DNA of 48,911 nt from an uncultured Candidatus Saccharibacteria bacterium. GTDB lineage: Bacteria > Patescibacteriota > Minisyncoccia > Portnoybacterales > UBA2143. The translations under genes were made by a program, and so were the position numbers. Position 1 is the first letter of the stretch. Every line of letters starts with the position of its first letter. This document shows, piece by piece, positions 12,682 through 40,400 of the stretch. The notes under the pieces are model-generated. The model saw only the letters and a list, made by a program, of their open reading frames with translations. It ran no database searches and was not told the origin of the DNA. The DNA is taken from positions 5,778-54,688 of the forward strand of contig CAYQQO010000001.1 of assembly GCA_964420115.1 (NCBI GenBank), written 5' to 3'.

Positions 12682-13842
12682 ATGCGCGTCTTAATGATTA
12701 GTTTGGATAAAACTCTTTTGGGTGGAGATTACAGCGGCGATGTGATAGAAAGACATAAAAGATACGGGGAAACGGCGGGCAGTTTGGAAATTATTGTTTT
12801 TTCAAAAGGTCAAGACAAAACAGCAAGCGTTCTCCCCCGCGGCTTGGATAAAAAAAGGATTAGTTCCCATTTAAGCGTTTATTCAACAAATTCTACAAAA
12901 AAGATAAATTATGTTTTTGACGCTTTTAATATTGCCAAAAGCATTTATTGGCCTGATAAGTTTGATTTAGTTGTTGCTCAAGATCCTTTTTTGACGGGTT
13001 TGGCTGGCTGGTTGATTAAAAAAAGATGCGAGGCGCCGCTGTTAGTCCATTTTCATGGCGATTTTTGGCAGAATAAGTGTTGGCTTTGGGAAAAATGGTT
13101 TAACCCTTTTCTTTTAGTTTTAAGCAAGCTATTGGTTGGGGGGGCTGACGGCGTCAGAGTGGTTAGTTCTATTATTAAAAGAAAACTTGTCAAATCAGGA
13201 ATAGATAAAAAGAAAATCAAAATTATTCCTACACCGGTTAATGTAGAAAAGTTTGTTTACTGCGACCCAGACCAATTAAGAGATTTGAGGAAAAATATTT
13301 TTGAGGGGAGAAAAACCGTTATTAATGTTGGCAGAGACGATTTGTCTAAGGATTACTCTACCTTGATTAAAACAATTGAATTGATTAATGATAAATACAG
13401 GAGTTTGGCTTTTTGCCAAATAGGGGCTGATCTTCAATTGGAAAAGAAAGTCAAAGCAGATGAAAACTTAATTTTAGCTTCTTATGGGAAAATGAGCCAA
13501 GAGGAATTGGCTAATTATTATCACGCCGCCCACGTCTATTTGTCAACTTCAAAACATGAAAGCTTTGGCAAGGTTTTGATTGAAGCGATGGCCTCTGGTC
13601 TGCCGGTTGTGGCTACGGCCACTACTGGTTCTAAGGGAATTATTAGAAACGGATATAATGGTTACCTGGTTCCTATTGGCGATAGTCAAGCGTTGGCCAG
13701 AAAAGTTTTATACCTGCTTAATAATCCCCAAAGAGCCAGAGAAATAGGGCAAAGGGGGAGAAAATTAGTAAGGGAAAAATTTGGCCAGGAAGAAAAGGTC
13801 AAAGATATTATTGGTTTTTGGGAATATTTATCACGCCAATAA
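12682..13842 (+). CDS. GT4-family glycosyltransferase, 386 aa
   Basis: HESFGKVLIEAMASGLPVVATATTGSKGII. It starts with the same ATGCGCGTCTTAAT as the gene at 11503, so the two are paralogues. Confidence 0.85.
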   Translation: MRVLMISLDKTLLGGDYSGDVIERHKRYGETAGSLEIIVFSKGQDKTASVLPRGLDKKRISSHLSVYSTNSTKKINYVFDAFNIAKSIYWPDKFDLVVAQDPFLTGLAGWLIKKRCEAPLLVHFHGDFWQNKCWLWEKWFNPFLLVLSKLLVGGADGVRVVSSIIKRKLVKSGIDKKKIKIIPTPVNVEKFVYCDPDQLRDLRKNIFEGRKTVINVGRDDLSKDYSTLIKTIELINDKYRSLAFCQIGADLQLEKKVKADENLILASYGKMSQEELANYYHAAHVYLSTSKHESFGKVLIEAMASGLPVVATATTGSKGIIRNGYNGYLVPIGDSQALARKVLYLLNNPQRAREIGQRGRKLVREKFGQEEKVKDIIGFWEYLSRQ

Positions 13843-13852
13843 AACAAAAATT

Positions 13853-24914: not shown

Positions 24915-25789
24915 TGAGCAAAGAATTCAAAATTGATTTTATCGGCATCGGCGCGCCAAGATGCGCTACTGGCTGGGTTTTTAATATTTTAAAAGAGCAC
25001 AAAGAGGTTTGTTTTTCTTTTGTTAAAGAAACACAATTTTTTAATATGGATTATAATTACGAAAAAGGATTGGCTTATTATGAAAACTTTTTTAAAGGTT
25101 GTCCAGAAGGGCAAATAAAAGGGGAGTTTACCCCTGCTTATTATTTGCAGGAGAAAACAGCTCAACGCATTAAAAATAATTTTCCTCGGGTTAAATTATT
25201 AATAGTTTTAAGAAATCCGATGCAAAGAGCATATTCTCATTACCTTTTTAACAAAACAAGAGGCGTCCCGGTTAAATCTACCTTTGAAAAAGAGATAGAG
25301 AGAAATCCCCAATATATAAATGATGGATTTTACTATAGGCATTTATCTAAATTTTTAAAATATTTTAATTCTAATCAAGTATTGGTTGTTATTTATGAAG
25401 ATATAATTTTAAAGCCGGAAAAAACAGCTGAAAAAATCTATAAGTTTTTAAATATAGATTATAAATTTATTCCTTCCTCTCTTAATAAAATAATTAATTC
25501 TTACAACAGTAGTTATTTGAAAATCCCCCTAATTAACCAGATAATGCAAAAAATTTGGAGAAAAACACGAGGATATCAATTAGGGAGAAAAGCGCTTATT
25601 TTTTTTAAATTGTTGGGGCTTAATAAAGTTGCTAAGTTTGTTTTAGAGGTAAACCGGGCTGAAAAAAAATCAGGTTCTGCTAAAGAGCAGATTAGATCGG
25701 GGACTAATAAAAAGCTAAAAGAAATATTTGAAAGCGATATTAAAAAATTAGAAAATTTTATAGGGAGAGATTTAAGTTTTTGGCAATAA
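24914..25789 (+). CDS. PAPS-dependent sulfotransferase, paralogue of 21066-21917, 291 aa
   Basis: FIGIGAPRCATGWV (variant 5'-PSB loop) and LRNPMQRAYSHY (3'-PB). The N- and C-termini align with the minus-strand paralogue (KIDFIGIG..., DIKKLE.FIG..L.FW). Confidence 0.75.
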   Translation: MSKEFKIDFIGIGAPRCATGWVFNILKEHKEVCFSFVKETQFFNMDYNYEKGLAYYENFFKGCPEGQIKGEFTPAYYLQEKTAQRIKNNFPRVKLLIVLRNPMQRAYSHYLFNKTRGVPVKSTFEKEIERNPQYINDGFYYRHLSKFLKYFNSNQVLVVIYEDIILKPEKTAEKIYKFLNIDYKFIPSSLNKIINSYNSSYLKIPLINQIMQKIWRKTRGYQLGRKALIFFKLLGLNKVAKFVLEVNRAEKKSGSAKEQIRSGTNKKLKEIFESDIKKLENFIGRDLSFWQ

Positions 25790-25791
25790 AT

Positions 25792-27621
25792 ATGTGCGGA
25801 ATCGCTGGGTTTACAGGGAGAAAAAATGATGTTCGCCTAGCCATTATGGTCAGGCGGTTGATTCATCGGGGCCCTGACGATGAAGGTTTTTATAGTGATG
25901 AAAATGTTTCTTTGGGGATGAGAAGATTGAGTATTATTGATTTGTCGACCGGGCGCCAGCCAATTTTCAGCGAAAATGAAAATGTTGTTACTGTTTTTAA
26001 CGGGGAGATATATAATTTCTTAAAATTAAGAAATGATTTGGTTAAAAAGGGGCATAGGTTTTCTACTAATTCTGATACAGAGATAATCGTCCATCTTTAT
26101 CAGGAATTAGGAAATAAGTTTGTTGACCAATTAGATGGCATGTTTGGTATTGCTCTTTGGGATAAGAAAAAAAAGAAATTAATTTTAACCCGCGATCGCT
26201 TTGGTAAAAAGCCATTGTATTATACTCAAATCGGCCGACAGCTTGTTTTCGCTTCGGAGATTAAGTCCATTCTGGAATACGGCGTTAAAAAAGAAATAAA
26301 TTTTGAAGCTCTTCATCATTATTTTTCTCTCAAACACATTCCTGATCCTTTGACAATTTACAAGAATGTTTATTCCTTGCCTGCTGGCAGTTGTTTGGTT
26401 TTCCAAAAAGAAAAAATAAAAATAAAAAAATATTGGCAGCTTGATTACAACACTATAAATCCCAGAAGCGAGTTAAAAATAATTGATAAATTGGATTATT
26501 TATTAAACCAAGCAGTCGCTAAAAGATTAGTCAGCGATGTGCCCATCGGCGCTTATTTGAGCGGTGGCTTGGATTCCAGTTTAGTGGTGGCTCTTTTTAG
26601 CCGATTAGCCCAAGGAAGAATTAAGACATTTTTCATGACTTATCAAGGCGATTTTTCAGGCAAAGAAAATGATCGGAAATTTGCCGGACAAATCGCTAAA
26701 AAGTATAAAACCGACCATTATGAGTATGTCATGAAATATCAAGAGCTGGCTGATTCTTTGGAAGGTGTTTTATCTGCTTTTGATCAGCCTTTTGCCGGAG
26801 TTATTTCCACTTATTTTATTTCACAATTAATTAAAAAGCATGTTAAGGTAGCAATTTCCGGAGATGGCGCAGATGAGTTGTTTGCCAGTTATTTAGTAGC
26901 CCGTTTAGCTTTCCCTATAGATAATTATTTAAAAAATAACGGGAAAGACATAGAAGCGCTAAAGCCATTTAATGAGCAAATAGATTTTTTAAAGAGTATC
27001 GCTGATAAGCCAGAATGGCGCTGGCGCTCTAAATTAGTTGTTTTTAACGAGAAAGAAAAAAGAGAGTTGTATCAGAATAAATTATTAGAACAGCTTGATA
27101 AATGCAGTACGGTGAAGTTATACCGGAATTATTTTAGATCCTCTACAGCCACGGATCCTTTAAACAGAGTTTTGGATGTTGACTGCAAAACCGTTTTGAC
27201 GGATCAGGTTTTGCCTTTTGTTGACCGTTTATCTATGGCTCATTCTATTGAAGTGCGTTGTCCTTTTTTGGATTATCAGTTGGCTGAATATGCGGCGGGC
27301 CTCCCGGGTCAATGGAAAATAAGGCAAGGGGAGACAAAATATATTCTTAAGAAATTAGGCGAGAGATATTTACCCCAAAAATTAGTTTATCGGCCCAAAG
27401 AGGGTTTTATTATGCCAATAAATGACTGGTTGATGAATAAAATGGAAAAGCAAGTAAAAAATATTTTATCAGTCAGGCGTTTGGAAAAACATAATCTCTT
27501 TAATCAAGATATTGTCAAAAATTTAGTTGAGTGTTATTATTCTAAGCGGCTCATTAACAATTCAAATAAAATCTGGAGTCTGCTTATGTTCCAGCTTTGG
27601 TGGGAAAACAATATTAAATAG
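25792..27621 (+). CDS. asnB: Asparagine synthase family glutamine amidotransferase, 609 aa
   Basis: Start set to MCGIAGF (Met-Cys). PP-loop AYLSGGLDSS. The track ORF starts 12 nt earlier. Confidence 0.85.
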   Translation: MCGIAGFTGRKNDVRLAIMVRRLIHRGPDDEGFYSDENVSLGMRRLSIIDLSTGRQPIFSENENVVTVFNGEIYNFLKLRNDLVKKGHRFSTNSDTEIIVHLYQELGNKFVDQLDGMFGIALWDKKKKKLILTRDRFGKKPLYYTQIGRQLVFASEIKSILEYGVKKEINFEALHHYFSLKHIPDPLTIYKNVYSLPAGSCLVFQKEKIKIKKYWQLDYNTINPRSELKIIDKLDYLLNQAVAKRLVSDVPIGAYLSGGLDSSLVVALFSRLAQGRIKTFFMTYQGDFSGKENDRKFAGQIAKKYKTDHYEYVMKYQELADSLEGVLSAFDQPFAGVISTYFISQLIKKHVKVAISGDGADELFASYLVARLAFPIDNYLKNNGKDIEALKPFNEQIDFLKSIADKPEWRWRSKLVVFNEKEKRELYQNKLLEQLDKCSTVKLYRNYFRSSTATDPLNRVLDVDCKTVLTDQVLPFVDRLSMAHSIEVRCPFLDYQLAEYAAGLPGQWKIRQGETKYILKKLGERYLPQKLVYRPKEGFIMPINDWLMNKMEKQVKNILSVRRLEKHNLFNQDIVKNLVECYYSKRLINNSNKIWSLLMFQLWWENNIK

Positions 27622-27633
27622 GAGGATAATAAT

Positions 27634-28725
27634 ATGAAAGTAGTTCTTTTTGCTTTAACTGGTTTTGGCAACGGGGTTTTAGATGTTTTGTTGGAAAGCG
27701 GATGCCAAGTAGGAGCTGTTTTTACCAGAGTTGAGAAGGGTTCTTTCCCTTATTACAGAGAAAAAAACATTTTCCGCTATGCCAAAGAAAGGGGCGTTCC
27801 CGTCTACGCTGAAATAAACTGGACTGATATTTATAGAATTATCAACGGCATTTCGCCCGATCTTCTTTTGGTGGCGACATATTATCGGATAATCCCCCAA
27901 CAAATAATTACCATGACTCCCTTGGCTGTTAATCTGCATCCTTCCCTTTTGCCTAAATATAGGGGAGCTACCCCTTGTTTTTGGGCACTTTTTAACAAAG
28001 AGAAGGAAACAGGGGTAACAGCCCATTTTCTTACAGAAAAGCCTGATGCCGGAGATATGCTGATTCAAAGAAAGTTGGCAATAAGAGCAGATGAGGACGA
28101 GCGCTCTTTAAGAAAAAGATTATCTCAATTGAGCGCAGATGTCGCGCGGGAGCTAATATGGCAAATTAGAGAAGATCAGCTTAGTCCCGTACCTCAAGAA
28201 GAAGCCAAGGCAACTTATTGCTCAAAATTTAATAAAGAGTCGGTAAGAAAAAGAAAGGGGGTTGTGGTCGTTAATCTTAAAAAAAACCAGCAATGGCTGA
28301 CGGATTATGTTTTTCTTCGCAATAAGCACCTCCAAGCTCTGCTTAGCGAAAAAGTTGATTTGGCTGCAACAAAAGAGTGGCTAAGGCAAAATGATGTTGA
28401 GTTGTACGGAATAATTGATGGCGGAATTTTCCAAGGGGCTGTTGTTATATACATTAAGGAAAATAAAGGGGAGGGGGAGGTGGCTTTTTTTACTTCTAAT
28501 ATTGGTTGTGGCTATGGAGGCAGACTGTTGAAAATAACTGATGTTGTAGCAGTGGAGCGAAGGCTTTCGAAGCTTTGCGCCTGGACTAGGGATAATAATG
28601 TGCCAGCTATCAATGTTTTTCGACGAAACAGATATTTTTTGGTTAAGAAAACAGAAAAAACTTATCGAGGCGAAAAGATAAAAGGATATCTTTTTGAGAA
28701 ATACAAGAAAGGAGACAGAAAATGA
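27634..28725 (+). CDS. Bifunctional-looking formyltransferase (N-terminal) fused to a GNAT acyltransferase-like domain (C-terminal), 363 aa
   Basis: Formyltransferase core VNLHPSLLPKYRGATPCFWAL plus KPDAGDM, giving an Asn/His/Asp triad pattern. C-terminal about 130 aa carry the GNAT motif A-like NIGCGYGGRLL and NNVPAINVFRRNRYFLV. Strong AGGAGG Shine-Dalgarno upstream. Confidence 0.7.
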   Translation: MKVVLFALTGFGNGVLDVLLESGCQVGAVFTRVEKGSFPYYREKNIFRYAKERGVPVYAEINWTDIYRIINGISPDLLLVATYYRIIPQQIITMTPLAVNLHPSLLPKYRGATPCFWALFNKEKETGVTAHFLTEKPDAGDMLIQRKLAIRADEDERSLRKRLSQLSADVARELIWQIREDQLSPVPQEEAKATYCSKFNKESVRKRKGVVVVNLKKNQQWLTDYVFLRNKHLQALLSEKVDLAATKEWLRQNDVELYGIIDGGIFQGAVVIYIKENKGEGEVAFFTSNIGCGYGGRLLKITDVVAVERRLSKLCAWTRDNNVPAINVFRRNRYFLVKKTEKTYRGEKIKGYLFEKYKKGDRK

Positions 28726-29636
28726 GTAAAGCTGTTTCAAGTGATAAGGAAGCTGAAAGACTGGAAGATGCCGGATGTTTCCCCAGGGTGGTTCTTATTG
28801 ATACAATCAACTTTTGCAATCTGCGCTGTTCTATGTGCGGCCGTCAGGAAATGGCAAGGAAAGGCGGTATTATGAAAACACCGCTTTACCAGAAAATCAT
28901 TAACGAGATAACCGCCAAAGACAAAAGCGTCAGGGTTTGGCTTGTCTTTTTCGGCGATCCCTTTATGTTGAAAGGGAAATTCCGCGGCTACATGGGATAT
29001 GCTAAAGAGAAGGGGCTGACTGACGTGGTGGTTAACACCAATGGCAATCTGATGAATGAAGAGCGCTCTCGGGAAATGATTGATGCCGGCTTAGACGCTG
29101 TTTATATCGGTATTGACGCTGTAAGCGCGCCTGTTTACAGTAAACTGCGGATAGGCGGTAATTTACCTAAAGTTGTCGCTAACGTCAAGCGGTTGATTGA
29201 GTTAAAAAAAGAAACAGGAGCGGATAAGCCCGAGGTTTTTGTCCAGTTTGTTGAAATGAGGGAAAACAGCCATGAAAAACAGAAGTTCATTGACTTCTGG
29301 ACAGGCCAGGGGGCGATTGTCAAGGTCCGGCCAAAAGTAAGCTGGGCAGGGACAGTAGCGGCTGACAATCTGAAGGCGGGTGAAGAAAGACACCCCTGCT
29401 ACTGGGCCATGCGGACAATGAATATCCTTTTTGACGGCCGGGTTTGCCTCTGCGCTGTTGACTACGACGGCAGGTTTATTGCCGGCGACATCAGCAAGGA
29501 ATCGCTGGAAAATGTCTGGCTTAACGGGCTGGGGCAAATCCGCAAGATGCAAAGAGAGGGAGAGTATTCTTCTCTGCCGTCTATTTGCCGCTATTGTTTG
29601 GACTGGCAGGCGGCCAAGGCGCAATTCCGTCAATAA
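28722..29636 (+). CDS. Radical SAM enzyme with a truncated SPASM/twitch-type C-terminal domain, 304 aa
   Basis: NFCNLRCSMCG (CX3CX2C). C-terminal C-x12-G-x4-C (CYWAMRTMNILFDGRVCLC) followed only by CRYC. Confidence 0.8.
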   Translation: MSKAVSSDKEAERLEDAGCFPRVVLIDTINFCNLRCSMCGRQEMARKGGIMKTPLYQKIINEITAKDKSVRVWLVFFGDPFMLKGKFRGYMGYAKEKGLTDVVVNTNGNLMNEERSREMIDAGLDAVYIGIDAVSAPVYSKLRIGGNLPKVVANVKRLIELKKETGADKPEVFVQFVEMRENSHEKQKFIDFWTGQGAIVKVRPKVSWAGTVAADNLKAGEERHPCYWAMRTMNILFDGRVCLCAVDYDGRFIAGDISKESLENVWLNGLGQIRKMQREGEYSSLPSICRYCLDWQAAKAQFRQ

Positions 29637-29674
29637 GTTTTGCGGCGGGATGAGCCAAGTTTGGCGGGAAGAGA

Positions 29675-29709
29675 GGGCTTTCTTGTTGACAAGAAGAGAA
29701 AGCCCTTTT
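29675..29709 (+). terminator. Hairpin plus T-run between the two SPASM genes
   Basis: GGGCTTTCT (29675-29683) pairs with AGAAAGCCC (29697-29705) and is followed by TTTT. Confidence 0.5.
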
Positions 29710-29714
29710 ATATT
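29686..29714 (+). promoter_or_regulatory. Consensus-like sigma-70 promoter TTGACA-N17-TATATT, overlapping the hairpin
   Basis: TTGACA at 29686-29691 sits in the hairpin loop. TATATT is at 29709-29714. Confidence 0.45.
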
Positions 29715-29787
29715 TGTATAAAAATACAAGTTGTTCCTTGAATAAAAAAACTATGCCGATAAATTTCCAATGGAGAAGGAGAAAGCT

Positions 29788-30753
29788 ATGCGAATAAATC
29801 ATTTGCCAGAAGAGTTTAAGATTAAAGAAGGCGCTGAAGAATTCCCATTAATGGTTGTTCTTTCCTTCGTTTATATTTGCAACGCCAGGTGTCCACAATG
29901 TCCTTATACGCAAACCAATATCAGAGCTGACTATAAAGATGCTCTTTATATGCCGGAGGAGCTTTTTAAAAAAATCGCTGATGAATGCGGCCAGTATCAG
30001 GCATATATTCGTCTTTCTGGAGGAGGCGAGCCTCTTCTTCATCCTAAAGCGCTTGATTTGGTTGAGTACGCCAAGGAAAAAAGGGCTAAGATCGGGCTTA
30101 TCACCAACGGCTCCTTAATAGATGGAAAGAAAGCTGGTCGACTGCTGGCTTGCGGGACTGATATGATTGAATTTAGTGTTGATGCGGCTGATAAAGAGAC
30201 ATATAGCCAGTTGCGCAAGGGGCTTAGTTTCGGCAAATTGGTTGAAAATGTCAGATATATTGTTCAAAAAAGAGATCAGTTAAATAGCCCGAGCAGGATA
30301 ATCGCCAGCATTATCAATCAAAAAGCTGTTGAGGGAAAGCTTGATTCTGTTGTTAGTTTTTGGGGAGAAATTGTTGATGATGTTCAGGTTAGAAAGTATC
30401 TGACCTGGGGTTATCTTAACGATCACTCGGCCGATTCAAGGCCATATTTGCCGCCAGAGCAGAGAATTCCCTGTCCTTGGCTGTTTGAAAGATTAAATAT
30501 TGACAGCAGGGGGGATGTCACTCTTTGCGGAGAGGACATCGCCTTTAAAGAAAAGTTCGCTAATGTCTATAAGCAGCCAATCAAGGAAATATGGCGCGGC
30601 CCTGTTTTTGAGAAAGCGCGTCGTCTGCATCTGAGATGTCAAGGCGACCAAATCCCGCTTTGTCGGAATTGCCCTGACTGGCAGTATCGGTCTTGGACGC
30701 ACAACTATTGGAAGCTGGAGGCTGAGAGAAAGGCTGATATCAACAAAAAGTAA
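29788..30753 (+). CDS. Radical SAM enzyme with a truncated SPASM/twitch-type domain, paralogue of 28722-29636, 321 aa
   Basis: ICNARCPQCPY (CX3CX2C). CPWLFERLNIDSRGDVTLC (C-x12-G-x4-C), then CRNCPDW. I prefer the ATG at 29788 because AGGAG lies 6 nt upstream; the track start at 29770 is the alternative. Confidence 0.8.
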   Translation: MRINHLPEEFKIKEGAEEFPLMVVLSFVYICNARCPQCPYTQTNIRADYKDALYMPEELFKKIADECGQYQAYIRLSGGGEPLLHPKALDLVEYAKEKRAKIGLITNGSLIDGKKAGRLLACGTDMIEFSVDAADKETYSQLRKGLSFGKLVENVRYIVQKRDQLNSPSRIIASIINQKAVEGKLDSVVSFWGEIVDDVQVRKYLTWGYLNDHSADSRPYLPPEQRIPCPWLFERLNIDSRGDVTLCGEDIAFKEKFANVYKQPIKEIWRGPVFEKARRLHLRCQGDQIPLCRNCPDWQYRSWTHNYWKLEAERKADINKK

Positions 30754-30787
30754 TGTTTATCGGCTTAAATACCTGCCTAAGACAGGC

Positions 30788-30826
30788 AAAATCCTCGTTG
30801 ACAAAAACGGGGATTTTTCTTATCAT
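30788..30826 (+). promoter_or_regulatory. Second hairpin with an embedded promoter: TTGACA-N17-TATCAT
   Basis: Stem AAAATCCTCG (30788-30797) pairs with CGGGGATTTT (30808-30817), with one G-U pair. The loop contains TTGACA (30798-30803). TATCAT is at 30821-30826. Confidence 0.4.
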
Positions 30827-30848
30827 AAAAGAAATAGTTGTTTGAGTT

Positions 30849-31553
30849 ATGAAGCAAAAGAAAAAAGTGGCAGTTATTCTTCAGCCTGGATATTTGCCTT
30901 GGTTAGGGTTTTTTGAGCAGATGTATAGAAGCGATGTTTTTATTTTTTATGATGATGTCCAGTATGATAAAAACGGCTGGCGCAACAGAAATAGGATAAA
31001 AACACCTCAAGGAGAACAATGGCTGACAGCGCCTGTTTTAATTAGCGGGCAGAACAGGCCGCTGATAAAAGATGTTTTAATTGACAATAAAACCGACTGG
31101 GCTAAAAAACATTTAAAAGCTATTTCTCAAAATTACAGCAAGGCTCCTTTTTTAAATAAATATTTTGGTTTTTTTGAAGAAATTTTATTGAAAAAATGGG
31201 AGCGTTTAATTGATTTGGACGTTTCCTTAATAGAAAAGATAAATGAAATTTTGAACATTAAAAGAGAGATAAAATTTTCTTCGCAATTAGGAATTTCTGG
31301 GGGGAAGACGGGGAGATTGATAAATATTTGCAGAAAATTAGAAGGAACTCATTTCTACGAAGGTGCGACTGGGAAAGATTACATAGACGAAAAAGAATTT
31401 GAATCAGCCGGAGTGATTGTTGAATACCAGGACTACAAGCATCCAATATATCAACAGCTTTACGGCCAATTTATCCCTTATTTATCTGTTATAGATTTAA
31501 TATTCAATCAAGGAGAAAGGAGCTTGGATATAATTCTGAATAAAAATGGCTAG
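30849..31553 (+). CDS. WbqC-family protein (function not established; found in O-antigen and amino-sugar clusters), 234 aa
   Basis: N-terminal VAVILQPGYLPWLGFFEQMYRSDVFIFYDDVQY is the pattern I recognise for the WbqC-like family. Confidence 0.65.
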   Translation: MKQKKKVAVILQPGYLPWLGFFEQMYRSDVFIFYDDVQYDKNGWRNRNRIKTPQGEQWLTAPVLISGQNRPLIKDVLIDNKTDWAKKHLKAISQNYSKAPFLNKYFGFFEEILLKKWERLIDLDVSLIEKINEILNIKREIKFSSQLGISGGKTGRLINICRKLEGTHFYEGATGKDYIDEKEFESAGVIVEYQDYKHPIYQQLYGQFIPYLSVIDLIFNQGERSLDIILNKNG

Positions 31554-32592
31554 TAGAAAAACAACAAAGACAATATTAATTACTGGCGGGGCCGGGTTTA
31601 TGGGCAGTAACTTGGTTTCTTTTTTATTTTCTAAATATCCTAATTACAAGTTAATAGTTTTAGACGCCTTGACTTATGCCGGCAATACAGATAATTTTTC
31701 AAGAAGTGTTTGGGATTCTCCTCGTTTTAAATTTCATTACGGTGATATTAGAAATGCTAATTTAGTTGACGCTTTGATTTCTCAAGCAGATATTGTTGTC
31801 CATTTGGCTGCAGAAACTCATGTTACCCGTTCTATTAATGATAATTTAGCTTTTTTTGAGACAGATGTTTTGGGGACCCATACTATTGCGAACGCGGTTT
31901 TAAGGAATAAAAATAAAATAGAACGTTTTATACATATTTCTACTTCAGAAGTTTATGGGACAGCGGTCAGCCGTCTTATGCGCGAAGAGCACCCTCTTTC
32001 GCCGATGAGTCCTTATGCCAGCGCTAAAGCCGGGGCTGACAGATTAGTTTGGTCTTACTGGGCAACATACCAAATTCCGACTATTATTATTCGCCCTTTT
32101 AATAATTATGGGCCTCATCAGCATTTAGAAAAACTAATTCCCCGTTTTATTACCAGCTGCCTTCTGGATGAACCCTTGACCGTTCACGGCGATGGTAAAA
32201 GCAAGCGCGACTGGCTCTTTGTCGGGGACTTTTGCCGGGGGGTTGATAGGGCGGTTCACGGGGATATAAATAAATTGCGGGGAGAGGTAATAAATATTGG
32301 CACTAGTAAAAGTTATGATATTAATACTATTGCCCAAATGGTTTTAAAACTAGCGAAAAAGCCTTCTGATATGGTCACATATATTGACAATCGGCCCGGT
32401 CAAGTATTCCGCCATACTGCTTCTATCAAAAAAGCGAAAGAATTATTAAATTGGAAGCCGATGGTTGATTTTTCTGATGGGATAGAAAAAACAATAGCTT
32501 GGTATAAAGCTCATCCTGGTTGGTGGAAAAAGCGGGTTTGGTTGAAAAAAATTACTATTTTAACTCCAGAGGGCAAAGAAATTTTGCATTAA
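31546..32592 (+). CDS. rfbB: dTDP-glucose 4,6-dehydratase (extended SDR), 348 aa
   Basis: ILITGGAGFMGSN, STSEVYG, YASAKAGADRLV (YxxxK) and RPFNNYGPHQHLEKLIPRFI. Confidence 0.8.
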   Translation: MASRKTTKTILITGGAGFMGSNLVSFLFSKYPNYKLIVLDALTYAGNTDNFSRSVWDSPRFKFHYGDIRNANLVDALISQADIVVHLAAETHVTRSINDNLAFFETDVLGTHTIANAVLRNKNKIERFIHISTSEVYGTAVSRLMREEHPLSPMSPYASAKAGADRLVWSYWATYQIPTIIIRPFNNYGPHQHLEKLIPRFITSCLLDEPLTVHGDGKSKRDWLFVGDFCRGVDRAVHGDINKLRGEVINIGTSKSYDINTIAQMVLKLAKKPSDMVTYIDNRPGQVFRHTASIKKAKELLNWKPMVDFSDGIEKTIAWYKAHPGWWKKRVWLKKITILTPEGKEILH

Positions 32593-33713
32593 TGAAGGTT
32601 GAGTTTTTTAAGCATAATATTGGATCTCGTGAGATTAGAGAGGTTAATAAAATTTTAACTTCATATTTTTTGACCACTGGGCAAGAGGTGGACAAATTTG
32701 AAGATTTATTTTCAAAATATTTAAAGTGTAAATACACAATTGGTTTGACTAGTTGCACTGCAGGCCTTCAATTAGCTTTGGAGGCCTTTGATATTGGGCG
32801 GGGCGATGAGGTGATCACCACTCCGCTTTCTTTTATCGCGACATCTAACGCTGTTATCCAAGCCGGAGCAAAGCCGATTTTTGTTGATGTTAAAGAAGAC
32901 AGCGGCAACATTAACGAAGATCTGATAGAAGGAGCAATTTCTAAAAGAACTAAGGCAATTATGCCGGTTCATTTATACGGGAGGATGTGCGATATGGAGA
33001 AAATAAGAAAGATTGCTGATAAGTATAAACTAAAAGTTATTGAGGACGCCGCTCATTGTATTGAGGGAGAACTAAACAATGTCCGTCCGGCTATGTTAAG
33101 CGATGCCGCTTGTTTTAGTTTTTACGCGACAAAAAGCATCACTTGTGGAGAAGGCGGAGCTCTTTCAACAAATAATAAAAATTTGGCAGAGAAAATAAGA
33201 AAGATGCGCCTACACGGGCTGACTAAAAGCGCGGCCCAAAGGTATGAAAAAAAATTCAGCCATTGGGATATGGAGGAGTTTGGCTGGAAATACAATATGG
33301 ACAATATCCAGGCGGCTCTTTTAATAAATCAGGTTAAAAATTTGGGGAAATATTGGGAGCGGCGGGACAGAATTTGGCGGAAATATGAATCTGCTTTTAG
33401 GGGTATTGATGGGATTGAATTTTTTGAAGTTCCAGATAGTATTAAGCATGCCCGCCATTTATTCACTATCTGTGTCTCTCCTGATAAAAGAGATAATTTG
33501 ATTAAAAAGTTAAATAGTCAAGGAGTCGGCGCTGTGGTTAATTATCGGCCTATTCATTTGATGAAGTATTATAAAAACAAATTCGGTTATAAGAAAGGCG
33601 ATTTCCCTGTGACTGAACAAATAGGCCGGCGGACTATTTCCTTGCCCCTTTATCCAAAGCTAAAAGACAAAGAGGTTGATTATATAATTAAGGCTGTTAA
33701 AAAATATGTATAG
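32592..33713 (+). CDS. DegT/DnrJ/EryC1/StrS-family PLP-dependent sugar aminotransferase, 373 aa
   Basis: The start at ATG 32592 forms a TAATG junction with rfbB; the track ORF extension upstream overlaps rfbB. FSFYATKSITCGEGGAL (PLP lysine region) and IEDAAHC. Confidence 0.85.
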   Translation: MKVEFFKHNIGSREIREVNKILTSYFLTTGQEVDKFEDLFSKYLKCKYTIGLTSCTAGLQLALEAFDIGRGDEVITTPLSFIATSNAVIQAGAKPIFVDVKEDSGNINEDLIEGAISKRTKAIMPVHLYGRMCDMEKIRKIADKYKLKVIEDAAHCIEGELNNVRPAMLSDAACFSFYATKSITCGEGGALSTNNKNLAEKIRKMRLHGLTKSAAQRYEKKFSHWDMEEFGWKYNMDNIQAALLINQVKNLGKYWERRDRIWRKYESAFRGIDGIEFFEVPDSIKHARHLFTICVSPDKRDNLIKKLNSQGVGAVVNYRPIHLMKYYKNKFGYKKGDFPVTEQIGRRTISLPLYPKLKDKEVDYIIKAVKKYV

Positions 33714-34410
33714 TTTATCAATGGTTGTTACTGCTTATAACGAAGAAGAATTAATTGAATCTTTTATTAGGAATTCAGTTGCTAAGTTATCCAAGGTGAC
33801 TGATGATTTTGAGATTGTTTTAGTCAATGATGGTTCAACCGACCAAACGCTGCCTATTTTAAGAAAACTTTCTCCAGAATTATCTCAGTTGAAAATTGTA
33901 GATTTAAAAGAAAATTTAGGAACTGGCAAAAATTATATCCCCGGCTTTCAGGCCGCTTCCAAAGAAATTGTTTTTAATAATACTGTTGACGCCTTCTTTA
34001 ATTTGGATGATTTGTCTAAAATGGTTAAATATTTAGACAATTATGATGTTGTTAGCGGCTATCGTACTGATTTATCAGCCAATAACTTTTATCAAAAAAT
34101 ATTGACTTTAGGCAATTATTGGCTGATTAGATTATTTTTTCCTTTGAAGCTGAAGGCCTATCAGACGGTCCAATTCCACCGTAATGAATTTTTAAAAAAT
34201 GTTAAAATTGAAGCGGCTAGTTCTTTTATCTCTCCAGAGCTGCTTTTAAAAGCTTATTGGCAGGGCAAGAGCATCAAAGAAGTGCCTATAAAATTTCATC
34301 CCAGGACTGCTGGTCAACCGAAAGGAGGTAAATTAAAACATGTAATGAGGACTTTTAATAATATAAGCAGGTTTTGGTTTAAGTGGGTTATTCTCAAAAA
34401 TTATAAATAA
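33706..34410 (+). CDS. GT2-family glycosyltransferase (soluble, DPM1/GtrB-like), 234 aa
   Basis: SMVVTAYNEEELI and VLVNDGSTDQT. The usual DAD/DXD position reads VDAFFNLDD, which is divergent. Confidence 0.7.
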   Translation: MYSLSMVVTAYNEEELIESFIRNSVAKLSKVTDDFEIVLVNDGSTDQTLPILRKLSPELSQLKIVDLKENLGTGKNYIPGFQAASKEIVFNNTVDAFFNLDDLSKMVKYLDNYDVVSGYRTDLSANNFYQKILTLGNYWLIRLFFPLKLKAYQTVQFHRNEFLKNVKIEAASSFISPELLLKAYWQGKSIKEVPIKFHPRTAGQPKGGKLKHVMRTFNNISRFWFKWVILKNYK

Positions 34411-34450
34411 ATAATCTTGCCCTGGACGCGGAGGGCGGCCAAATAAAAAA

Positions 34451-36460
34451 ATGGTGACGGTTGTTTTACTCTTTATTTTTTTGTCTCTATTAATTTTTTA
34501 CGGCTGGCAGTTAGCTAAGCTTATTTTGGATGAACACAGAATTGAAGCCCTTATCCCTTTATCTGTTGTTATTGGAGCGGCAAGCTATATTTTTTTATTA
34601 AATCTTACTTCTTATTTTATTAATATTGAGGTTAATTTTTATTTAACAGCCTTGTTTTTGTTTTTTATTGGATTATTAATTTATTTGAAAACAGAAAACA
34701 AGAAGATCCCTTTAGCGTGGGGGCTAAATAAAAAGGAAACTTTTATTATTTTTGGCACAGTTCTTTTAATAATGTTTTTAAATGGATTTTTATCTCTCCG
34801 TTCTGTGGAAATTGACGAATTAGCCGGCCACCACCTGCCATTAGCAAGAACTATAGCCGAGGGCAATTTCCCGGTTAGGGGATTGAATCTTCCGCAAGAG
34901 CCAGTGGTCTATCATTACGGCTATAATCTTCTTTTAGCGGCTTTTTTTAAAATTTCTGGATTAAGTGTCTGGTTTGGTCAAGATTTCAATGTTTTTCTTT
35001 TTTCCGGAGCAACGTTTCTCTTAATTTTTGCAATAGCTAAATTCTTTATTAGTCATAATTTGAAAGCATATTTTGTAGCCTTGATAGCTTATTTTGGCGG
35101 GGGGTTTAAATTTATCCATCTTTTTGAGGGCATATCTCCTTTGTATAAAAAAATTATTTTAGGGCAGGAGGTTTCTCATCCATTTAAATTTTTATCTCTG
35201 GTTTGGGAAAGCCCTCCTCTTTCTTTGGGGCCATTGGTTAAGTATATGCAATTTTTGTGGGGCCCTTTGGGATGGGCGTTGGTTTTTTGCTTAATTTATG
35301 TAATTTTTAAATTTATCAATAATCCTAAAAACAAAACTCAATTGTCTCTTTTGATAATTGTCTTGTTGTCTTCCTTGGCTTTGCTTATTGAAAATTCTTT
35401 TTTGGTCATAGCGGCTGCTTTGTTTTTTTATCCTTTTATTGAATATCTTTTCAAGAAAAATAAAGAAGAATTTAAACAAAAATTTTATTATATATTTTGG
35501 ATATTGGTTATTTCGGGATTAATCGTTTTATTTGCTGGCGGGTCAATCTCTGGTATTTTCCAATTATTCTTTCAAGAAAAATTGCCTTTAGGCAAGCCAA
35601 TTGAATATACTTTTTTTGATTCTCCTTTCTCTTTTTACAGGGGCGGGGATTATCCTGCGGTGCCTTTTTACGGGGAAGCTTTTGTTTTTAATTGGGGCTT
35701 TCTTTATTTCCTAATTGTCCCCGCTATTATTTATCTTTTAAGAAAGCATTTTGACAAGGGATTGTTTTTAACAATAATTAGCTTTTTTTCATTTATCCCG
35801 CCTTTTTTAATGAATTTTAATAATCCTTGGCAGGATACAGTCGCCAGATTTTATTTTTTGGTCAATCCTCTGTGGGGTATTATTGTTGGTTTATTTTTGT
35901 TTTTTCTCTTTAATTATTTTAAAGATAGGAAAATATTGAAGTATTTATTGGGTTTTTTAATAGTTTTAATATTGTTAGACGGCCTTGCTTTCCAATTCAC
36001 CAGGCCTTTCTATATGTCCCGCGCTCCGGGGGTAGAAAAAGAAGGATTTATCGGCCGTCCTTTTTCTGTTAGCTCCTTGGAGTCAGGCGCTTATAAATGG
36101 GTGGATAAAAATACGAATTTTAATGATTATTTTTTGTTTTTTAAAGACGAAAGCCAGCCAATAGTGGGAGTTCAAAATTACAAATTTATTTTAGGGGCTG
36201 GGAGGTTGGCGCCTATTTATTCAGAGTGCAATAACATAGAACAATGCCCTGACCCTGATCATCCTGCTTTCTCTTTGTACCAAAAATTGATTGCTGATTG
36301 CGACAGTCAAATTTTGGAAAAATTAGAATATAACTATTTATTTGTTGATAATAATTGGCCAAAAGGGTTAGAGGAAAAATGTCTGGCTAAGAATAATTTA
36401 GAACTAAAATTTAACAAGTCAGAAAATAGCCAATTTATTAATATCTATTCAGTTAATTAA
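34451..36460 (+). CDS. Large polytopic membrane protein with a C-terminal soluble domain; putative GT-C-type glycosyl or oligosaccharyl transferase, 669 aa
   Basis: More than 12 predicted TM helices. An early extracytoplasmic loop carries the acidic motif VEIDELAGHHLPLARTIAEGNFP. It sits directly downstream of a GT2 gene. Confidence 0.4.
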   Translation: MVTVVLLFIFLSLLIFYGWQLAKLILDEHRIEALIPLSVVIGAASYIFLLNLTSYFINIEVNFYLTALFLFFIGLLIYLKTENKKIPLAWGLNKKETFIIFGTVLLIMFLNGFLSLRSVEIDELAGHHLPLARTIAEGNFPVRGLNLPQEPVVYHYGYNLLLAAFFKISGLSVWFGQDFNVFLFSGATFLLIFAIAKFFISHNLKAYFVALIAYFGGGFKFIHLFEGISPLYKKIILGQEVSHPFKFLSLVWESPPLSLGPLVKYMQFLWGPLGWALVFCLIYVIFKFINNPKNKTQLSLLIIVLLSSLALLIENSFLVIAAALFFYPFIEYLFKKNKEEFKQKFYYIFWILVISGLIVLFAGGSISGIFQLFFQEKLPLGKPIEYTFFDSPFSFYRGGDYPAVPFYGEAFVFNWGFLYFLIVPAIIYLLRKHFDKGLFLTIISFFSFIPPFLMNFNNPWQDTVARFYFLVNPLWGIIVGLFLFFLFNYFKDRKILKYLLGFLIVLILLDGLAFQFTRPFYMSRAPGVEKEGFIGRPFSVSSLESGAYKWVDKNTNFNDYFLFFKDESQPIVGVQNYKFILGAGRLAPIYSECNNIEQCPDPDHPAFSLYQKLIADCDSQILEKLEYNYLFVDNNWPKGLEEKCLAKNNLELKFNKSENSQFINIYSVN

Positions 36461-38546: not shown

Positions 38547-40400
38547 ATGTGCGGTATTGTTGGTTTTTATGGCCAAGGAGACAAACAGATTTTAGAAAAA
38601 ATGGCCAAGTCGTTGGACTATCGCGGCCCTGATGACGAGGGCTTTTTTATTGATAATACAGTTGGCTTGGGGCATCAAAGATTGACTATTATTGATTTGT
38701 CTTCTTCTGGCAGGCAGCCAATGGCAAACGAAGACGGTAAAATACAACTTGTTTTTAACGGTGAAATATACAACTATAAAGAATTAAAAAAGGATTTGAC
38801 TAAAAAGGGGCATTCTTTTAAAAGCCAGACTGACAGCGAGGTGGTTGTCCATCAGTACGAAGAAGACGGGCTTAAATGTTTTTCTAAGTTAAATGGCATG
38901 TTTGCTTTAGCAATTTGGGATAGCAGGGAAAAGAAATTGATTTTATCCCGGGATCGCTATGGCCAAAAGCCGCTCTACTGGACGGAAAATAAAAATAGCC
39001 TAATTTTTTCTTCTGAATTAAAAGCTTTGTTTTTTCATCCGTTGGTTAAAAAAGAAATAGATCCTTTGGCTTGCTTTCAATATTTTTCATTTGATTATGT
39101 TCCTCAACCAAGAACAATTTTTAAAAATATTAATAAATTAGAAAATGGACAAATTTTAGTTTTTCATCAAGAAAAAGTTGAATTAGAAAAATATTACCAA
39201 TTTAATCTTGAAGAATCAGATACTAATTTTAATTCTGCTCTGAACGAATTTGAAAAAATAATTGCTGATTCAGTTAAAAAACGCTTAATAGCTGACGTGC
39301 CGGTAGGGGTATTTTTGTCTGGCGGGATTGATTCTTCAACTGTTGCCTATTTTGCCAAAAAACAAAAAAAAGAGATTGAGACATTTTCTATTGGTTTTTC
39401 TCAAAAAAGTTTTGATGAATCTTATTACGCGCTAAAGGCGGCAAATTTTTTAAAAACCAAACATTATCATTATAAATTCCAGCCGGACGATTTAATAAAA
39501 GTTATTCCTGAAATTATTGATAAACTGGACGAACCCTTTGGCGATTCTTCTATATTGCCGACATATCTTTTGTCTGGCTTTACTTGTAAAAAAGTTAAGG
39601 TAGCTTTGGCTGGCGATGGCGGCGACGAGCTTTTAATGGGCTATCCCAACCACCAAGTCCAAAAAATTATATCTCTTTTTAGGCTGGATAAGTTTAAGAC
39701 AAATATTAATATAGCCGAAGTTTTAGAAAATATTTTGCCTGTTTCCAGTAAAAATTTAACTCTTTTTTATAAGGCGAAAAGATACAGTCACAGCTTAGCT
39801 TTTAACGGTTTGTGGCGTGATTTTTTAAGTATTGGAGGTTATTTGAATAATATAGACGGCTTATTTAATTTTAAAATAGATAAAAGTGAGTTGTTTAACT
39901 TTTCTAATAATTTTTTAGAGGATTTTCAAGATGCCTCCTATCTTAAAAAAATTAATCTGCTTTTACTTAAATATTATTTAACAGATAATATTCTTTTTAA
40001 GGCTGATCGGGCCAGTATGTATCATGGCTTAGAAGTGCGGGCGCCTTTTTTAGATTATCGTTTAGCTGATTTTTCAAATTCGCTTCCTTTACATTGGAAG
40101 CTGAAAGGACTTAAAAGTAAATATATTTTAAAATGTTTAATGAAAGATAAACTGCCTAAAGAAATTGTTTATCGCAAGAAGAAAGGCTTTGGCGTTCCTT
40201 TAACCCTATGGTTTAGAAAAGAATTAAAGAATTTTTTAATTGATAATTTAAGTAAAAAAGAAATAAATAAATTCGGCCTGATAAATTATCAAGAAACAAA
40301 AAAATTAATTAATCAGCATTTAAAAAAAGAAAGAGACAACAGAAAAGTGCTTTGGAATTTAATTATTTTCCAAAATTGGTTAAAAAGATACTATGTCTGA
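38547..40400 (+). CDS. asnB: Asparagine synthase family glutamine amidotransferase, 617 aa
   Basis: MCGIVGF N-terminus. PP-loop VFLSGGIDSST. Confidence 0.85.
   Translation: MCGIVGFYGQGDKQILEKMAKSLDYRGPDDEGFFIDNTVGLGHQRLTIIDLSSSGRQPMANEDGKIQLVFNGEIYNYKELKKDLTKKGHSFKSQTDSEVVVHQYEEDGLKCFSKLNGMFALAIWDSREKKLILSRDRYGQKPLYWTENKNSLIFSSELKALFFHPLVKKEIDPLACFQYFSFDYVPQPRTIFKNINKLENGQILVFHQEKVELEKYYQFNLEESDTNFNSALNEFEKIIADSVKKRLIADVPVGVFLSGGIDSSTVAYFAKKQKKEIETFSIGFSQKSFDESYYALKAANFLKTKHYHYKFQPDDLIKVIPEIIDKLDEPFGDSSILPTYLLSGFTCKKVKVALAGDGGDELLMGYPNHQVQKIISLFRLDKFKTNINIAEVLENILPVSSKNLTLFYKAKRYSHSLAFNGLWRDFLSIGGYLNNIDGLFNFKIDKSELFNFSNNFLEDFQDASYLKKINLLLLKYYLTDNILFKADRASMYHGLEVRAPFLDYRLADFSNSLPLHWKLKGLKSKYILKCLMKDKLPKEIVYRKKKGFGVPLTLWFRKELKNFLIDNLSKKEINKFGLINYQETKKLINQHLKKERDNRKVLWNLIIFQNWLKRYYV

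Follow-up and report, generated by a model that had tools for sequence, protein, structure and literature searches.

Two predicted twitch-type radical SAM enzymes of unusual base composition within a conserved gene cassette of probable amino-sugar function

The DNA considered in this study is a stretch of 48,911 nucleotides (the window, whose numbering is used throughout) from contig CAYQQO010000001.1 of an uncultured Candidatus Saccharibacteria bacterium (GenBank assembly GCA_964420115.1, placed by GTDB in the Patescibacteriota). It contains two neighboring genes encoding radical S-adenosylmethionine (SAM) enzymes, which I will refer to as rSAM-A (28722-29636, forward strand, 304 amino acids) and rSAM-B (29788-30753, forward strand, 321 amino acids). 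The account that best explains what is known of them, and one that I consider probable though with considerable reserve, is that they are a pair of twitch-type enzymes belonging to a conserved amino-sugar cassette, that they perform oxidations similar to that of the antibiotic enzyme BtrN, and that in this genome they replaced earlier alleles of the same two genes.

An earlier note on this DNA, made from the letters of the sequence, had described the pair as paralogous radical SAM enzymes with a truncated SPASM domain, and the description holds. Both proteins exceed the gathering scores for Pfam Radical_SAM and SPASM (60 and 62 bits for PF04055, where the cut-off is 29.5). They align with each other from end to end at 25% identity (E value 5e-27) and appear by this measure to be genuine but old, anciently diverged paralogues. 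Among 5.8 billion proteins, rSAM-A has 456 relatives and rSAM-B 1577, the matches listed ranging from 51% to 68% identity, and no relative of either protein above 68% was found in that search.

The initial ATG of rSAM-A overlaps the stop codon of the formyltransferase-GNAT gene upstream (ATGA). The longest open reading frame (ORF) of rSAM-B runs from 29770 to 30753 and encodes 327 amino acids. Since positions 29772-29782 hold a strong Shine-Dalgarno sequence (GGAGAAGGAGA) and the gene call in a public protein collection is of 321 amino acids, translation probably begins at the ATG at 29788 rather than at 29770 (residue numbers given below for rSAM-B follow the 327-residue version). Three further ORFs overlap the pair in alternative frames or on the opposite strand: 29202-29729 (reverse strand), 29431-29721 and 29855-30118. 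They were rejected as real genes, as none matches any known family and their counterparts in a syntenic, low-GC metagenome contig (L001) are much shorter. They look like by-products of GC content, in keeping with the earlier note, which had taken such frames to be spurious.

The assignment to a subclass is carried by the cysteines. Alignments of 25 diverse homologues of rSAM-A and 24 of rSAM-B (52-68% identity) reveal exactly seven invariant cysteines in each family: three in a CX3CX2C motif, two in a C-x12-G-x4-C element and two in a C-terminal CxxC. In rSAM-A these are C32/C36/C39 (CNLRCSMC, codons 28815-28838), C226-x12-G239-x4-C244 and C289-x2-C292, the auxiliary four having codons at 29397, 29451, 29586 and 29595. 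In rSAM-B they are C37/C41/C44 (CNARCPQC, codons 29878-29901), C235-x12-G-x4-C253 and C298-x2-C301, with auxiliary codons at 30472, 30526, 30661 and 30670. The sequences of both CX3CX2C motifs are themselves invariant across the homologues. The remaining cysteines (C19 and C242 of rSAM-A, C128 and C290 of rSAM-B) are not conserved, with the exception of C73 of rSAM-B, which is kept in at least 90% of homologues. Beyond the CxxC there remain only 12 (rSAM-A) or 26 (rSAM-B) residues, with no conserved cysteine among them, and neither protein has the full seven-cysteine SPASM motif (with CX2CX5CX3C and a final cysteine) by which anSME, PqqE and the sactisynthases bind two auxiliary clusters. The count of four auxiliary cysteines given in the earlier note, enough for one extra cluster, is the count found in the aligned members of both families.

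The twitch domain corresponds to the initial four of the seven cysteines in the SPASM motif (CX9-15GX4C ... CX2C), and in BtrN four such cysteines supply all the ligands of one [4Fe-4S] cluster, to which oxidation of the substrate radical is ascribed (PMC6231123). Because the four conserved auxiliary cysteines match those first four, both enzymes can be placed, as far as sequence permits, in the twitch subclass of SPASM/twitch radical SAM enzymes. Each protein is predicted to bind a SAM-cleaving [4Fe-4S] cluster and one auxiliary cluster ligated by four cysteines. The radical SAM core begins at residue 25-35, and no extra N-terminal domain resembling PqqD or the recognition element (RRE) of RiPPs (ribosomally synthesized peptides with post-translational modifications) was found in either protein.

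AlphaFold 2 models of the two proteins are confident (mean predicted local distance difference test, pLDDT, of 92 for rSAM-A and 89.7 for rSAM-B) and show alternating beta and alpha elements in the core. In the model of rSAM-A, C226 and C244 enclose two strands (232-235 and 240-242), after which come helices at 262-278 and then C289/C292, and rSAM-B is predicted to have an analogous layout of hairpin, helix and CxxC. The elements that characterize the twitch fold, namely a beta-hairpin between the first two cysteines, helix alpha2' and the last cysteine ligands, are thus present in both predicted models. The model of rSAM-B has the conserved C73 where helix alpha1 ends, ahead of the GGE strand and on the side of the barrel far from the active-site end.

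BtrN is the nearest solved relative of both families by sequence: it was the top match in profile searches of the PDB (E values of 1e-14 for rSAM-A and 2e-13 for rSAM-B), in alignments that cover the core and the twitch domain, CxxC included. This agrees with the resemblance to BtrN, rather than to the full SPASM peptide maturases, that the earlier note had proposed. Comparison of folds with Foldseek bears out the proposal for one of the two: BtrN was the top match to the model of rSAM-A (E value 4e-14, template modeling (TM) score 0.77 on BtrN), but BtrN was not singled out for rSAM-B, the matches of its model to SuiB, DesII, BlsE and BtrN all falling within two orders of magnitude of one another.

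To see the pair in a wider context, I considered 80 loci with homologous genes, taking one genome per species, and treated separately the 45 loci with at least 6 kb on either side (full-flank loci). The closest relatives of rSAM-A and of rSAM-B share contigs. Three of these, the metagenome contig L001 and two metagenome-assembled genomes (MAGs), L003 from the Patescibacteria and L004 from the Armatimonadota, combine the pair with an AsnB-like amidotransferase, a GNAT protein and/or a formyltransferase, a WbqC-family protein and a DegT-type aminotransferase. An RmlB-like short-chain dehydrogenase/dehydratase (SDR) is also present in L001 and L003 and was not found in L004 by tblastn. Searches by tblastn with the window proteins recovered orthologues of all seven of these genes, at 42-67% identity. 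In the full-flank loci, AsnB occurs in 33, WbqC in 32, rSAM-B in 31, the SDR in 30, DegT in 26 and GNAT/formyltransferase in 24; rSAM-B, AsnB, WbqC and the SDR occur together in 26 of the 45. The usual gene order is rSAM-A, AsnB, GNAT/formyltransferase, rSAM-B, WbqC, SDR, DegT. Nearly always, rSAM-A adjoins AsnB and rSAM-B adjoins GNAT/formyltransferase. The arrangement in which rSAM-A directly precedes rSAM-B is that of the window, L001 and a Desulfovibrio-type clade.

The cassette spans some 20 bacterial phyla, mostly anaerobic. Represented among the 80 loci are Thermodesulfobacteriota, Nitrospirota, Planctomycetota, Elusimicrobiota, Riflebacteria, Bacillota, Chloroflexota, Armatimonadota, Melainabacteria and others, with one Patescibacteria genome and one cultured carrier, Fundidesulfovibrio agrisoli SG106. 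The trees of rSAM-A and rSAM-B have subclades in common, which indicates that the two were inherited together. The pair, which the earlier note had regarded as a GC-rich island embedded in an amino-sugar module, is therefore not a free-standing island but consists of co-inherited core parts of a conserved cassette. The role in amino-sugar chemistry that had been suggested from the neighboring genes is strengthened by co-inheritance with AsnB, GNAT/formyltransferase, WbqC, the SDR and DegT in many phyla, and the cassette probably tailors an amino sugar. A full-text literature search found no paper describing this cassette or the function of WbqC.

Some sister pairs in the trees cross phyla on very short branches: an alphaproteobacterial MAG with a Candidatus Scalindua MAG (L028 and L034), and a Nitrospiraceae MAG with two Geobacter MAGs (L009, L012 and L013). 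The whole cassette appears to have been transferred between phyla, or else mis-binning of MAGs lies behind these pairs. A plasmid collection yielded radical SAM genes at only 24-31% identity and so gave no evidence of the cassette on known plasmids.

The most likely function of the two enzymes, to judge by analogy, is a radical oxidation like that of BtrN, performed on a sugar intermediate that feeds an aminotransferase. In each enzyme the 5'-deoxyadenosyl radical would abstract hydrogen from a carbinol carbon of the sugar intermediate, and the fully ligated auxiliary cluster would take up the second electron to give a ketone. The keto group could then be transaminated by DegT, as BtrS acts after BtrN, or be otherwise processed. 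The two paralogues would act at different positions or on successive intermediates, AsnB, GNAT/formyltransferase and WbqC would add amide and acyl features, and a family 2 glycosyltransferase (GT2) and a large membrane protein, both encoded downstream, would probably pass the sugar to the cell surface by way of a polyprenyl-phosphate carrier. Oxidation is favored because an auxiliary cluster fully ligated by cysteine cannot bind substrate, and such a cluster is assigned the part of electron acceptor in the two-electron oxidations carried out by BtrN and anSME (PMC6231123).

Several observations weigh against this reading. In the SPASM/twitch subfamily, function is not readable from similarity (PMC6231123), and the identity of rSAM-A and rSAM-B to BtrN is only 15-18%. 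It follows from that low identity that they are not orthologues of BtrN. Though they resemble BtrN, they do not belong to its family of 2-deoxy-scyllo-inosamine dehydrogenases, the genes moreover lying in a glycan cassette and not in an aminoglycoside cluster. The fold search with the model of rSAM-B does not prefer BtrN over SuiB, DesII or BlsE. No NCBIfam family is matched at or above its cut-off by either protein, the best scores and their cut-offs being 110 and 380 bits for TIGR04317 (W-cofactor maturase), 86 and 250 for TIGR04321 (spiro-SPASM), 81 and 400 for TIGR04311, 54 and 170 for NF033640 (N_Twi_rSAM), and 40 and 400 for TIGR04466 (BlsE). Finally, homologues of rSAM-A at about 50-55% identity stand without cassette genes within 10 kb in 9 of the 45 full-flank loci and in 11 loci in all (L016, L017, L019, L020, L042, L044, L045, L051, L055, L056 and L057). 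These solo homologues cluster in the tree, and their hosts have high-GC genomes (Eremiobacterota/Vulcanimicrobiota, UBP9, Burkholderiales and Selenomonadaceae). Of the two contexts that were annotated (L045 and L051), one has genes for Nramp, phosphoketolase and cytochrome c and the other for NnrS and a P450, and neither offered a clue to function. Since such solo homologues occur, the substrate of rSAM-A need not be specific to the cassette.

A further point of the same kind concerns the SDR (31546-32592, forward strand), which the earlier note had called RfbB; the note had also named dTDP-4-keto-6-deoxyglucose as a substrate to try. That label was trusted too far. The protein scores 327 bits against TIGR01181 (dTDP-glucose 4,6-dehydratase, that is RmlB/RfbB), just under the cut-off of 365, and has T-S-E in place of the T-D-E motif of RmlB: its STSEVYG aligns to the STDEVYG of solved RmlB proteins, with serine for the catalytic aspartate, although YASAK is present. 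The same STSEVYG is found in 38 of 41 cassette SDR orthologues. T-S-E is the motif of GDP-mannose dehydratase and also of UDP-glucuronate decarboxylases. By analogy with these enzymes, 4-keto-6-deoxy sugars, plain 4-keto sugars and 4-keto pentoses are all conceivable products, and dTDP-4-keto-6-deoxyglucose is not a safe assumption, because the SDR lacks the catalytic aspartate of RmlB.

Other chemistries have to be set beside a BtrN-like oxidation. A redox-neutral radical reaction on the sugar is unlikely but well worth keeping in mind, be it dehydration of a 1,2-diol or a deamination (DesII, BlsE and AprD4 being the models) or the loss of CO2 from a uronic acid. DesII and BlsE are among the top fold matches to rSAM-B (1e-11 to 1e-12), BlsE is the second-best PDB family to rSAM-B by profile, and the SDR shares its T-S-E motif with UDP-glucuronate decarboxylases. 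The natural substrate of DesII, in the desosamine pathway, is the product of a 4,6-dehydratase and a DegT-type 4-aminotransferase, and the cassette has both kinds of gene, one 4,6-dehydratase-like and one DegT-type. Against such a reaction, DesII has no auxiliary cluster, and BtrN is the best match by sequence for both families. A cluster fully ligated by cysteine is, moreover, the acceptor of an electron in the oxidations of BtrN and anSME (PMC6231123). A rather less likely idea is that one or both enzymes act on a part of the molecule that is not sugar, such as an amino-acid-derived or other acyl group on the 4-amino group, which WbqC, AsnB and GNAT/formyltransferase would attach, amidate and cap; the radical step might then be an epimerization, an oxidation equivalent to hydroxylation or the formation of a carbon-carbon bond. 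The near-constant position of rSAM-A beside AsnB and of rSAM-B beside GNAT/formyltransferase would fit this idea, as would the activation of carboxylates by AsnB-type enzymes, the solo rSAM-A homologues in non-glycan contexts, and the presence of the peptide epimerase EpeE and of sactisynthases among the fold matches. It is countered by the lack of an RRE or peptide-binding domain, by best sequence relatives that act on sugars or cyclitols, and by the Pfam-annotated genes at the L001, L003 and L004 loci, among which no gene for a carrier protein, an ATP-grasp enzyme or an adenylation enzyme was found.

The pair might also be sugar epimerases of the NeoN/HygY type, which return hydrogen to the opposite face. 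NeoN and HygY belong to the same twitch subclass, and surface sugars often need unusual stereochemistry. These two enzymes use a conserved cysteine as the donor of the hydrogen atom, however, and the rSAM-A family has no conserved cysteine beyond the seven cluster ligands, while the rSAM-B family has only C73, which is modeled across the barrel, remote from its active-site end. I regard epimerization as improbable on this account. The maturation of a peptide encoded nearby, the case that the earlier note had held against its own interpretation, is very unlikely. SPASM/twitch enzymes frequently serve in RiPP maturation, the fold matches include SuiB, CteB and SkfB, and the gap between the two genes holds a micro-ORF of 23 codons (within 29650-29721) that could be put forward as a precursor. 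That region, however, is a hairpin resembling a terminator or promoter. There is no conserved small ORF. L001 has a gap of only 54 nt here, and most genomes place AsnB and GNAT between the two genes. Proteins of 304-327 amino acids whose core begins at residue 25-35 have no room for an RRE, and every conserved neighbor is a sugar enzyme.

The history of the pair is a separate matter, raised by its base composition, for which the window itself (37 other ORFs) served as the host reference. The GC content of rSAM-A is 0.484 and that of rSAM-B 0.437, as compared to 0.361 for the window. Lines of 60 nt within 28722-30753 average 45.6% GC (range 30-58%), as compared to 33.7% and 36.6% in the flanking genes (range 17-57%; Mann-Whitney p = 4e-8). 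The distinct composition that the earlier note had reported from hand counts of such lines is thereby confirmed, although it is less stark than those counts implied and the ranges overlap. It is clearer at third codon positions, whose GC content (GC3) is 0.544 in rSAM-A (z 6.7) and 0.430 in rSAM-B (z 3.2), against 0.327 ± 0.032 in the other 37 ORFs, and the log-likelihood of the synonymous codons used is correspondingly low (z -4.1 and -2.4). Because C-ending and G-ending codons are both raised across most amino acids (CTG, for example, is at 0.43 as compared to 0.07), the shift looks like the mark of a different mutational background rather than of translational selection. The GC3 peaks in the 3' part of each gene, which encodes the twitch domain.

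The amino acids tell a similar story. For each cassette protein, GARP-minus-FYMINK was regressed on host GC over 37-81 orthologues (r 0.74-0.95), and the fitted relation predicts a host GC of 0.52 from rSAM-A and 0.49 from rSAM-B (z of 2.7 and 2.1 above expectation), as compared to 0.38 from WbqC, 0.42 from the SDR, 0.37 from AsnB and 0.30 from DegT. Elsewhere the genes of the cassette are uniform in composition and share the local GC3, the orthologues in about 50 other genomes matching their hosts; in L001 the GC3 of rSAM-A is 0.38 and that of its neighbors 0.28-0.35. An assembly artefact was rejected as the source of the anomaly: an independent Logan contig of 12,292 nt (run X1, a microbial-mat metagenome), although from the same sample, covers 25904-35000 with zero differences. 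The compositional anomaly of the pair is real.

Outside the pair, stretches of 2 kb with at least 43% GC occur solely at 2-6 kb, in a large gene at 2215-5892. That gene is a 1225-residue ORF with a GC content of 0.453, driven by second codon positions (0.469), and has no Pfam match.

The reading that I favor, and that seems to me fairly probable, is that the two genes, perhaps along with the rearranged formyltransferase-GNAT gene just upstream, are alleles that took the place of the resident copies and had evolved in a carrier belonging to the same cassette lineage and with a higher GC content (about 50%). The order of the two parts of that gene, inverted with respect to L001, and the gaps bracketing rSAM-B, which resemble terminators and promoters, are in keeping with recombination. 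No tRNA lies in the window, and neither flanking repeats nor mobility genes were found in it, only glycan genes surrounding the pair. The earlier note had proposed horizontal acquisition of the pair, and GC3, codon choice and amino-acid composition all accord with this. In the protein trees, however, rSAM-A, rSAM-B, the SDR, AsnB, DegT and WbqC of the window are all nearest to L001 and/or L003, two low-GC loci of Patescibacteria type, and no donor emerges. Acquisition of the pair from another phylum is not supported. As there is no relative above 68% identity, no donor has been identified and no different phylum of origin is indicated.

Three results weigh against replacement: the N- and C-terminal halves of rSAM-A are both closest to L001 and L003 (which led a chimeric rSAM-A gene to be rejected), approximately unbiased (AU) tests within the trio of window, L001 and L003 did not separate the history of the pair from that of the flanks, and the donor allele has not been sampled, the best matches being at 65-68% identity. 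A less likely but serious possibility, then, is that no transfer took place: the pair would have been inherited vertically with the rest of the cassette and its GC-rich composition would be due to local selection, on mRNA structure or expression level, or to chance. The common placement of pair and flanks, on terminal branches of similar length (0.33-0.43), the want of a known donor, the slightly higher GC3 of rSAM-A in L001 as well and the concentration of GC3 in the part of each gene encoding the twitch domain are all as one would expect if this were so. It accords less well with a shift that, for almost every amino acid, affects the C- and G-ending codons, with amino-acid compositions that predict a host GC of about 0.5 and with the match to host composition of the orthologues in the other genomes.

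The other genes of the region, all on the forward strand, may be described in order. The AsnB-like glutamine amidotransferase (25780-27621; Pfam GATase_7 and Asn_synthase) is the member of the cassette whose orthologues, at 42-64% identity, adjoin rSAM-A in 33 of the 45 full-flank loci, usually directly 3' of it. There are three AsnB-like paralogues in one glycan island (13781-15730, 25780-27621 and 38547-40400), of which the middle one alone is a cassette member. Next, at 27634-28725, is a fusion of an N-terminal formyltransferase (Pfam Formyl_trans_N, residues 68-167; best NCBIfam matches to fmt and ArnA, both under cut-off) with a C-terminal GNAT-like part, which is 34-39% identical to the separate GNAT genes of L001 and L003. 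In L001 (8905-9974), GNAT and formyltransferase are separate genes with GNAT first, whereas formyltransferase comes first in the fusion. In the majority of the other genomes, a single one of these genes stands between AsnB and rSAM-B.

The gaps on either side of rSAM-B measure 151 and 95 nt, as compared to 54 and 22 nt in L001. The first (29637-29787) has a terminator-like hairpin at 29671-29709 followed by a run of U, and a promoter-like TTGACA-17-TATATT at 29686-29714 (11/12 in a promoter scan; fold energy -20.8 kcal/mol, z -3.2). The second (30754-30848) has hairpins at 30774-30788 and 30789-30816 followed by a run of U, and a promoter-like TTGACA-17-TATCAT at 30798-30826 (again 11/12; -20.0 kcal/mol, z -4.9). 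Among sigma-70-like promoter matches between 27 and 32 kb these two rank highest, and in both the TTGACA lies within the hairpin loop.

Downstream is the WbqC-family protein (30849-31553; Pfam WbqC, 9.6e-81), a cassette member with orthologues at 43-61% identity in 32 of the 45 full-flank loci. No PDB relative of it was found, either by sequence or with a profile of 12 sequences, and the literature calls the family uncharacterized or lists it beside DegT. The SDR already described is followed by the DegT/DnrJ/EryC1-family sugar aminotransferase (32592-33713; Pfam 1.7e-120), whose nearest NCBIfam families, PseC, ArnB (283 bits) and the WecE type, all fall under cut-off. Its longest ORF begins with a TTG at 32520, but translation probably starts from an ATG at 32592, a site that overlaps the SDR stop codon (TAATG) and fits the length of the L001 orthologue (373 amino acids). 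The small GT2 (33706-34410, 234 amino acids; Pfam Glycos_transf_2) resembles polyprenyl-phosphate glycosyltransferases. Its NCBIfam matches (PgfS, ArnC and a dolichyl-phosphate hexose transferase) are all weak, its PDB matches are to ArnC, DPMS and GtrB at about 1e-8, and its orthologues in L003 and L004 are 63-66% identical. The last gene, at 34451-36460, encodes a polytopic membrane protein of 669 amino acids to which no family could be assigned: it gave no Pfam, NCBIfam or PDB match and no detectable similarity to ArnT or PMT_2, and it is accordingly not put forward as a GT-C or ArnT protein. It is 36-42% identical to proteins of 672 amino acids at the same position, 3' of the cassette, in L001 and L003.

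L001 (2157-3200), L003 (4841-5902) and L004 (1687-2718) each have a third radical SAM/SPASM gene, of 343-353 amino acids, adjoining a family 4 glycosyltransferase or a GT2, and no counterpart of it was seen among the ORFs of the window.

If these elements are put together, a larger and more tentative proposal suggests itself, to which I would give a little less than even weight: that the cassette constitutes an undescribed radical-SAM route to a new surface amino sugar by means of oxidations independent of oxygen and outside the reach of conventional pathways, the product being for example a deoxy sugar that is poly-aminated and/or bears a carboxamide; that it has moved horizontally among some 20 mostly anaerobic phyla; and that its product is exported here through the polyprenyl-phosphate GT2 and the unclassified membrane protein of 669 amino acids, acting as a transferase. 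Sugar-tailoring radical SAM enzymes are known almost only from antibiotic pathways (BtrN, DesII, BlsE, AprD4, NeoN, HygY and SpeY). What is new is that two uncharacterized twitch families are fixed parts of a cell-surface glycan cassette, one that includes WbqC, and that they extend to hundreds or thousands of metagenomic proteins and to genomes of some 20 phyla. The chemistry, once solved, would give functions to at least three orphan families and probably reveal a new bacterial sugar, and would show by what means anaerobes and ultra-small episymbiotic bacteria vary their surfaces. The compositional signal, for its part, would offer a concrete case of the replacement of two genes within an operon, inside a cassette that is otherwise resident.

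Known systems resemble the pair and its cassette in different respects. DesII (TDP-4-amino-4,6-dideoxy-D-glucose deaminase of desosamine synthesis; PDB 8HZV) is a radical SAM enzyme that acts on a nucleotide sugar and is a top fold match to both models, but it is longer (about 480 amino acids) and is absent from the sequence-profile matches of both families. BlsE, the cytosylglucuronate radical SAM enzyme of blasticidin S synthesis (PDB 7VOB), is likewise sugar-modifying, is similar in size, acts ahead of an aminotransferase and matches rSAM-B both by profile (8e-9) and by fold (7e-11; TM scores of 0.64 and 0.63). It differs in having a nucleoside antibiotic intermediate as substrate and, as noted, the NCBIfam BlsE family is matched at 40 bits rather than the 400 needed. 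SpeY, HygY and NeoN, from aminoglycoside pathways, are twitch dehydrogenases or epimerases of carbinol centers in sugars or cyclitols, and SpeY (PDB 7WZV) appears, weakly, in the match lists by profile and by fold (E value 3e-5; TM score 0.44). These three, however, serve secondary metabolism in actinomycetes, and none is known to form a paralogous pair within a cassette for surface glycans.

The Arn pathway (ArnA, ArnB, ArnC and ArnT) recalls the region as a whole, with its formyltransferase, its SDR bearing T-S-E, its DegT aminotransferase, its ArnC-like GT2 and its large polytopic membrane protein. By analogy this suggests that nucleotide-linked assembly of a 4-amino sugar is followed by its passage to polyprenyl phosphate and its transfer on the outer side of the membrane. 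The window genes nonetheless score far under the equivalog cut-offs, their SDR is globally RmlB-like rather than ArnA-like, and the Arn pathway itself has no radical SAM, AsnB or WbqC component, so that the resemblance is one of analogy and not of membership. The closest likeness is to BtrN, the 2-deoxy-scyllo-inosamine dehydrogenase of butirosin synthesis (PDB 4M7S and 4M7T). BtrN is a protein of about 250 amino acids whose substrate, a free aminocyclitol, belongs to an antibiotic pathway in Bacillus, whereas here there are two paralogues of 304-327 amino acids in a surface-glycan cassette with AsnB, GNAT/formyltransferase, WbqC and an SDR. Like the pair, it joins a radical SAM core to a twitch domain with four cysteines, and its ketone product passes to an aminotransferase of the DegT family, BtrS, just as the cassette contains a DegT-type gene of its own.

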